From Auanema rhodensis (lineage: Eukaryota; Animalia; Nematoda): a stretch of DNA of 64,000 bases. The translations under genes were made by a program, and so were the position numbers. The stretch is from assembly GCA_964057225.1 (NCBI GenBank), contig CAXKVF010000013.1, positions 1-64,000 of the forward strand, read 5' to 3'. A model generated the notes under the pieces. It saw nothing but the letters and a program-made list of their open reading frames with translations, was not told where the DNA came from and did no database searches. Positions 34,728 through 35,158 of this stretch are shown here, in pieces (the stretch's first letter is position 1; every line of letters starts with the position of its first letter).

Positions 34728-35158
34728 CAAAACATCCAATCAAAGGATAGTCTCAACAGATCGCAGTATATAAAGACTGCTCTACTGGATACAACACCTT
34801 GACCAGTTCTCAAGTCGTATACAAGAGATTTAGCGCCCTGACGTTGACCAGAGTTTTCTGGCTTTAACAACCATGAAAGATTCCCTTTCACGGATATGTT
34901 ATATACTAGGGCATAAGCTCTCGTGTGAACACGAGATATAGTTGCCTTCCGACACCAAGAAGCAACGTTATCGTAACCATTATTAGGTAGGATTCTGATT
35001 TAGAGGCGTTCAGTCATAATCCTACTAATGGTAGCTTCGGACCATTGGCCTTTCGACCAAGTCCATGAACCAAATGTTAGAACCACCTGTTCCTCTCGTA
35101 CTGAGGTGGATTACTATCGCAACAATCAAGTCTACAGTAGGGTAAAACTAACCTGTCT
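34728..35158 (-). rRNA. 28S rRNA 3' portion, split off by the 22.6-kb insertion
   Basis: Matches 28S up to ...GGTAAAACTAACCTGTCT (35158), then diverges. Confidence 0.95.

Follow-up and report, generated by a model that had tools for sequence, protein, structure and literature searches.

Ribosomal DNA array and interrupted 28S gene

The stretch analyzed here (the window) comprises 64,000 nucleotides of Auanema rhodensis DNA, positions 1 to 64,000 of contig CAXKVF010000013.1, in which one 28S rRNA gene is split by a large insert bordered by a short direct repeat of 28S sequence. Rfam searches of the window revealed eukaryotic ribosomal DNA (rDNA), a minus-strand array in which the 18S, 5.8S, and 28S genes recur every 8394 bp. 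Two 28S copies are intact, one carries a 4.5-kb retroelement, and one is split by the insert. The split large-subunit gene was recovered by Rfam as two pieces on the minus strand (34729-35126 and 57700-60782), of which the 3' piece ends at 35158 and the 5' piece begins at 57717. Since the two pieces overlap only by a 15-mer and the flanks are otherwise like those of the intact units, the insert is taken to span 35159-57716, with 15 bp of target either duplicated or shared. The features of the insert borders are as follows.

35144-35158, minus strand: left repeat copy (in plus-strand order), 28S sequence equivalent to E. coli 23S positions 2598-2612, the proposed attachment (att) core common to the element
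35159-57716, no strand assigned: inserted element, 22,558 bp, 25-42% G+C, with multi-exon genes and satellite arrays
35159-35179, plus strand: left terminus, containing the first GTATCC-N4-GGATAC palindrome, a proposed recombinase-binding arm
35164-35482, no strand assigned: left subterminal array, with 10 GTATCC-N4-GGATAC palindromes and 9 copies of a 32-bp unit, proposed accessory binding sites
57697-57716, minus strand: right terminus, inverted partner of the left terminus
57717-57731, minus strand: right repeat copy, identical to the left copy

The 15-mer (sense AGACAGGTTAGTTTT) has five exact matches in the window, all on the minus strand, at 5463, 13857, 22251, 35144, and 57717. The mean expectation in shuffled sequence was 0.01, and five matches were reached in none of 100 shuffles. 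Three of the five belong to 28S genes without an interruption at this point, which have one copy each, and the remaining two flank the insert. When the split gene was aligned to intact 28S, its two halves shared exactly these 15 columns and no more. The repeat is 15 bp at most, because the neighboring bases differ on both sides (T versus C before the two copies and T versus C after them), and it shortens to 12-14 bp when the element termini are drawn further out. The flanking rDNA showed 0 differences from the intact units over 2974 bp on one side and 1 over 6284 bp on the other. This sole mismatch is at position 61927 (C versus A), in the 18S gene upstream of the split 28S gene.

The 28S context of the 15-mer is GACCGTCGTGAGACAGGTTAGTTTTACCC, and alignment to the annotated E. 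coli 23S gene assigned the 15-mer to positions 2598-2612, which include A2602. Its start is 702 nt 3' of the canonical R2 site. The natural target of the homing endonuclease I-CreI, as given in PMC1904291, contains the 13-mer CGTCGTGAGACAG. In the window 28S sequence this 13-mer ends 6 nt inside the 15-mer, and the overlap with the I-CreI site is therefore real. A previous reading of these letters, made without database searches (the sequence-only reading), had placed a 12- to 15-bp duplication, its length depending on the choice of termini, in this 28S context about 700 bp downstream of the R2 site, within a region equated with E. coli 23S ~2590-2610 (A2602 included) and overlapping the I-CreI region; the alignments and distances above agree with that description throughout.

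Recombinase-like gene and proposed attachment site

The idea that the insert encodes a tyrosine recombinase (YR) split by introns arose from reading the plus strand between 48.3 and 49.8 kb by eye and was then tested. The gene was modeled in two parts.

48970-49844, plus strand: catalytic-domain exons of a likely tyrosine recombinase (48970-49082, 49165-49219, 49262-49393, 49439-49621, and 49662-49841 plus the stop codon)
47394-48965, plus strand: possible upstream exons of the same gene, a crude exon chain with uncertain boundaries and a Cys/His-rich start read by eye

An exhaustive phmmer search of 1.84 billion representative proteins produced a single relative, P0001 (E value of 5.1e-4), a protein of 182 aa encoded on a 4,053-bp contig. 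The best Pfam family of P0001 was PF00589, with a sub-threshold E value of 0.023 and a match that spans positions 71-165 of the 172-position profile, at its catalytic end. The last three exons of the window gene, joined over GT..AG introns of 45 nt and 40 nt, showed collinearity with P0001 along 127 aa (35% identical, pairwise E value of 2e-19), which validates the two introns; the first two exons were supplied by the exon-chaining script only. The exon ending in GHSQDTHVE is followed by one starting with TYITD, which gives the usual spacing from GHS to the catalytic tyrosine. A beta-hairpin candidate picked out by eye (DKTIFGNKK) was rejected as being in the wrong frame; the other frame of that DNA aligns with P0001.

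The window product together with P0001 was then compared with a set of 14 PF00589 domains from one E. coli chromosome. Local hhalign gave a P value of 3.9e-4 over 119 columns, in a register that aligned the lysine, xxR, GHS, and tyrosine positions. None of 200 column-shuffled queries reached this score (best 21.7 versus 30.3), and reversal of the query lowered it to 10.0. Greedy extension carried the alignment over the whole domain and placed the box-I arginine. The aligned catalytic positions are R in 49042-49059, K in 49190-49207, xxR in 49493-49510, H in 49592-49603, and Y at 49665-49667. In a language-model feature search with the open reading frame (ORF) at 49439-49672, the first match was a cluster auto-named "Phage integrase family protein" (0.94), and 9 of 30 matches fell in clusters with some PF00589-carrying members. 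From these comparisons, we consider it very probable that the gene product is a tyrosine recombinase, one that stays below threshold in every curated library.

For other mobilizing enzymes, Pfam was searched with 206 ORF pieces of the insert, namely, 61 stop-to-stop ORFs of at least 60 aa and, outside the satellites, 145 shorter ones of 35-59 aa. A DDE transposase, a reverse transcriptase, and Cas1 were all absent from the matches. No family was significant in this search, and no match to an integrase passed the threshold.

The two ends of the insert are related in inverted orientation: 35160-35179 on the left agrees at 15 of 20 positions with the reverse-complemented 57697-57716 on the right. 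The GTATCC-N4-GGATAC palindrome has 13 matches in the window against a chance expectation of 0, and all 13 are inside the insert; the three at the right end are at 56430, 56624, and 57676. The junction stretches at 57707-57731 (GGATACAAGCAAAACTAACCTGTCT) and 35144-35169 (AAAACTAACCTGTCTTGCTGGTATCC) were overlaid on their common 15-mer to reconstruct a joint site. In this overlay the three innermost pairs of the dyad mismatch, leaving a 6-nt center, TAACCT, between arms of 16 nt each in which 14 of 16 pairs are complementary, so that the layout is 16-6-16. Three of the four pairs that lie wholly within the 15-mer are complementary, and this extension of the dyad into the target is at most suggestive. 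The sites of tyrosine recombinases are described as two inverted repeats of 11-13 bp with 6-8 bp between them (PMC3212892), and the reconstructed joint site fits the core layout given in that description.

The reading that we favor, with moderate confidence, is that the insert is a cargo-carrying integrative element placed in the 28S gene by a tyrosine recombinase that it encodes, and that the 15-bp repeat is an att core and not a target-site duplication (TSD) created by fill-in. In the mechanism proposed, circularization would bring the two termini together with a single 15-mer separating them, and the joint site on the circle would consist of TAACCT with an inverted 16-nt arm on either side. 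These arms would be bound by the recombinase, which would exchange strands at the edges of the center with the identical 28S sequence. The crossover region would be the center only; the 4-5 nt at either edge of the 15-mer would serve as the inner parts of the binding arms, and the subterminal palindromes would act as accessory binding sites. The reverse reaction between both repeats would restore an intact 28S gene. An att core had been preferred to a TSD in the sequence-only reading as well, which had no evidence for a recombinase; the likely recombinase gene, the 16-6-16 dyad, and the lack of DDE, reverse transcriptase, and Cas1 matches in the ORF pieces lend that preference partial support. 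Precedents are available in the YR-mediated integration of crustacean endogenous nimaviruses at the adjacent 28S motif (PMC10871703) and in the fungal Starships of 5S rDNA (PMC11162782).

Other genes and repeats of the insert and the array

The insert is coding, although long ORFs are scarce in it, which is explained by the short introns (40-60 nt) of its genes. The further genes modeled are as follows.

37301-37861, plus strand: SprT-like (HExxH) ORF, copy 1, 186 aa, Pfam SprT-like E value of 0.1
40117-42716, minus strand: multi-exon gene, crude model, no family matches in Pfam
50774-51731, plus strand: SET-like, Cys-rich gene, copy A, exons joined by short GT..AG introns, SET E value of 0.0091, below the cut-off
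51893-52853, plus strand: second SET-like gene (copy B), tandem to copy A and with the same intron positions
53994-54530, plus strand: SprT-like ORF, copy 2, 178 aa, with HExxH

The SprT-like copies are 47% identical over 174 aa without gaps. In the feature search they scored 0.94, with 29 of 30 matches in SprT-like clusters, and a word-indexed search of 5.8 billion proteins found no homologues of them. It is a matter of speculation that these ORFs, lying alongside a putative recombinase that works through a covalent intermediate, have a role in the clearance of protein-DNA adducts. The two SET-like copies have diverged, share a doubled CxCxxC motif, and are better conserved in their exons than in their introns. 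By eye, the gene at 40117-42716 was seen to encode a hydrophobic segment followed by a heptad-like stretch, and an inverted fragment of this gene, 90% identical, lies near the right end at 54617-55029 (plus strand). A basic, Lys/Arg-rich gene is present in two copies, at 36281-36705 and 55249-55605. Searches of the possible upstream recombinase exons (47394-48965) against Pfam gave no family matches, P0001 and the SprT-like alignment had no relatives when used as queries against viral contigs, and word-indexed protein homology searches added nothing new.

The insert also contains a palindromic repeat structure.

42594-47279, no strand assigned: 4.7-kb palindrome, with arms of ~890 nt that are 98% complementary, around two oppositely oriented 63-bp satellite arrays (25 and 20 copies)

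A third array of the 63-bp satellite is located at 35492-35876, and further arrays in the insert have units of 358 bp, 174 bp, and 196 bp. The 63-bp unit is 88-98% identical to six sites in the intergenic spacer (IGS) of each rDNA unit and to the 5' end of the 18S gene, and nothing else in the insert resembles the rest of the window. The IGS motif is ~55 nt long and resembles the first ~60 nt of 18S, and six copies occur per IGS in both orientations. Its sites are 2439-2502, 3315-3381, 3546-3693, 3885-3953, 4212-4267, 4405-4560, and 4731-4805, with equal offsets in each unit. Within the element the motif has been amplified to ~50 copies as the 63-bp satellite. The rDNA-specific transposon Pokey is described as carrying repeats derived from the IGS (PMC10946416). 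The IGS-like satellite argues for a history of the element inside rDNA, and exchange after insertion could look alike.

An internal copy of the left terminus was observed at 56604-56639 (plus strand), with the match at 56620-56639 (GCTGGTATCCAAATGGATAC) preceded by CCAGGTTTT, which is loosely like the 28S side of the right junction. This copy and the right end bracket a 1.1-kb segment with terminus-like sequence at both ends, possibly a miniature derivative or what is left of a second integration. Beside the palindromes there are recurrent nine-mers similar to the 28S flank; like the CCAGGTTTT copy, they carry little weight. A search of the insert for a second gapless core-like copy found none at 3 or fewer mismatches. 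A metagenome scan with a degenerate terminus pattern was also carried out, and none of the 119 loci examined, of an estimated 280, was flanked by 28S, contained a second palindrome, or matched the insert by BLAST; all 119 are chance matches.

Elsewhere in the array, the third rDNA unit contains a 4.49-kb non-LTR retroelement (LTR, long terminal repeat) at 22941-27427 on the minus strand, with one ORF of 1304 aa (RVT_1 E value of 4e-26). A 17-bp duplication, GTGACGCGCATGAATGG, borders the element on both sides (22924-22940 and 27428-27444), and a run of 10 G is found at its 5' junction. Its site is 26-43 nt 3' of the canonical R2 site, and it is therefore not a canonical R2 element; we take its position to be that of R4. 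Along with this R4-like location, the sizes of the rRNAs and the introns of 40-50 nt with TTTCAG-type acceptors point to a probable nematode host. In the 28S gene of the same unit, at ~27470-27480 (sense ACTATGA/TGAAGGTAGCC), CTCTCTT is replaced by TG, a net loss of 5 nt just 5' of the R2/Pokey/I-PpoI site, and this change may be the scar of an earlier event there.

Alternative explanations and known elements

Several observations weigh against the favored reading. P0001 scored 14.9 bits against a PF00589 cut-off of 27.1 bits, the hhalign probability was 35%, and a hidden Markov model built only from the E. coli domains gave the window product 3.5 bits versus 3.0 for the best of 300 shuffles. 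In HxxR, the window copy has R in place of the first H, which is present in P0001. The window recombinase exons had no Pfam match even at an E value of 10, PDB sequence searches (those with the single exons included) and profile searches returned no recombinase, PHROGs and NCBIfam searches for a recombinase gave nothing, and tblastn against 50,697 phage records matched no integrase. The shared-feature counts of the language-model matches (132-140) fit chance or distant relatives, and the AlphaFold models were too poor to use, with pLDDT scores of 40.5 for P0001 plus the exons and 36.2 for the SprT-like ORF. Crude exon chaining is the whole basis of the upstream exons, and the recombinase gene could itself be a passenger or a nested element. 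Concerning the junctions, an extension of the dyad into the 15-mer in three of four pairs is expected by chance about 1 time in 20. Site specificity for 28S and precise excision are things that we infer only, because a single insertion, the one in the window, was examined.

The same locus might have been produced by a cut-and-paste DNA transposon, non-autonomous or with an unrecognized transposase that cuts with a 14-15 bp stagger, in which case the repeat would be a TSD and the recombinase-like gene cargo or a nested element. We regard this as the main rival, although an unlikely one. Inverted termini that agree at 15 of 20 positions and are accompanied by subterminal arrays are also typical of DDE transposons, being present in many of their families, and TG..CA ends are another possible choice here, the duplication then being 14 bp long. 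Yet DDE transposases typically duplicate 2-11 bp, so that 15 bp exceeds their usual range, and even 14-15 bp is outside that of the known eukaryotic DDE superfamilies. The composite look of the insert, with diverged paralog pairs of three genes and the internal terminus-like copy at 56620-56639, would suit such a transposon, as would the sub-threshold homology of the recombinase; however, no transposase domain was found in the 206 ORF pieces (an unrecognized or trans-acting enzyme being conceivable), and the 16-6-16 layout and the recombinase-like gene would both be needed as coincidences.

It is considerably less probable that the insert is DNA captured at a staggered break made by another agent, such as an rDNA retroelement or a homing endonuclease, with the 15-bp repeat arising from fill-in repair. 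Such agents have a place in this picture, given the overlap with the I-CreI target and the active-looking rDNA retroelement with its 17-bp duplication in the array, and the 15-mer site is presumably at or beside the site of the mosquito RT retroelement, ~630 bp 3' of R1. But capture does not account for matched inverted termini that end exactly at the repeat; moreover, the insert lacks a poly(A) tail or other features of a retro-copy, has kept its introns, and has no such endonuclease among the 206 ORF pieces searched with Pfam. An assembly artefact, in which rDNA was joined chimerically to unrelated repetitive DNA, is very improbable: rDNA arrays and a 4.7-kb palindrome are difficult to assemble, but a precise 15-bp target duplication, matched inverted termini, and otherwise perfect 28S halves are not expected of a chimera.

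Apart from the piggyBac element Pokey, the mobile elements known to be specific to animal rDNA are almost all non-LTR retroelements. In a term search, "tyrosine recombinase," "Crypton," and "nimavirus" were all absent from a review on rDNA and transposons published in 2024 (PMC10946416), and in searches of PubMed Central and bioRxiv full text the only relevant report returned for a tyrosine-recombinase element in 28S rDNA was a paper on nimaviruses (PMC10871703). If integration by a self-encoded recombinase is correct, phage-like reversible integration would have been adopted in animal rDNA outside the giant viruses, and the insert would be a rare animal case of such integration at the catalytic center of the ribosome. 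A short stretch of 28S would then be a target on which group I intron homing, nimavirus recombinases, retroelements, and this element have converged. The insert would also provide a natural large-cargo integrase with a target in every eukaryote, a property sought in R2-based insertion tools, and the question of duplication or att core would become directly testable by one recombination assay.

Pokey adjoins the R2 site, ~700 bp upstream of the position of the 15-mer. Like the insert, this piggyBac element of Daphnia 28S has inverted termini, a single 28S site, and IGS-derived repeats, but it uses a piggyBac DDE transposase and makes a TTAA duplication, as described in PMC3849761 and PMC10946416. 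The insert differs from DDE transposons generally, piggyBac and Pokey included, in its 14-15 bp duplication and the lack of a transposase domain. It differs from the rDNA non-LTR retroelements (R1, R2, R4, and RT) in having kept its introns and in the lack of reverse transcriptase among its ORF pieces. Casposons match the insert in their terminal inverted repeats (TIRs) and 14-15 bp duplication, but the ORF pieces contain no Cas1 domain. Phage lambda shows the organization proposed here for the junctions, with a 15-bp common core, an overlap region of 6-8 bp between inverted core-binding sites, extra arm sites, and precise excision. In contrast to phages of this type, the insert is in a eukaryotic host and has introns in its gene, and no excisionase or arm-binding domain was identified in it.

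Cryptons are eukaryotic DNA elements moved by a YR, with a proposed circle and terminal direct repeats as substrates (Kojima and Jurka 2011, PMC3212892), and some of them carry an extra peptidase gene. As described there, they have no inverted termini, repeats of 4-6 bp, and little cargo, the recombinase being essentially their only gene, whereas the insert combines a 15-bp repeat and inverted arms with ~20 kb of cargo and seems to be targeted to rDNA. With these termini, this repeat, and several further genes, the insert stands apart from the Cryptons.

A closer parallel in location is provided by the endogenous whispoviruses PajaWSV and PotrWSV, which are reported to lie in 28S rDNA with multi-exon YR genes and a flanking repeat of CCGTCGCGRGAC (Kawato et al. 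2023, PMC10871703). As in the insert, a large DNA element in 28S combines a multi-exon YR gene with a repeat of a conserved 28S motif, theirs being 11-12 nt. The CCGTCGCGRGAC motif agrees with the window 28S sequence at 11 of 12 positions and lies directly 5' of the 15-mer, with a 4-nt overlap (AGAC). A related recombinase family is described as targeting (TAACC/GGTTA)n (PMC10871703), which may be set beside the TAACCT of the proposed center. By the same account, whispoviruses are nimavirus genomes of ~300 kb from decapods, in contrast to the 22.6 kb of the insert with its offset repeat of 15 nt. No viral families were found in the insert with Pfam and PHROGs, libraries that cover nimavirus genes poorly. 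The insert falls outside the 28S whispoviruses, its repeat being the adjacent 15-mer and not the CCGTCGCGRGAC motif in a nimavirus genome.

By the definitions available for named families (DUF3435, the PF00589 cut-off), the element belongs to none of them. The comparison that remains is with the fungal Starships, some of which target 5S rDNA and are bordered by target-matching direct repeats 6-16 bp long (Gluck-Thaler and Vogan 2024, PMC11162782). As described there, a YR moves variable cargo, the repeats match an internal motif of an rRNA gene, TIRs are sometimes present, and the copy number is low; the insert fits in cargo, repeats, and TIRs. It differs in having no DUF3435 match (among the 206 ORF pieces and P0001) and in the internal location of its recombinase gene, ~13-14.7 kb from the left end. 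In addition, these Starships target 5S, whereas the insert is in 28S of animal-type rDNA and its length is near the lower limit of Starship sizes. We tentatively raise the possibility, doubtful as it is at present, that the element is the first animal counterpart of the Starships: a low-copy element with a very divergent recombinase (a single relative among 1.84 billion representative proteins), integrating reversibly at the peptidyl-transferase helix, with SprT-like proteases, SET-domain genes, and host spacer repeats as its cargo. In such a counterpart of the Starships, the SprT-like proteases might clear covalent recombinase-DNA adducts and the SET-domain genes might act on rDNA chromatin.

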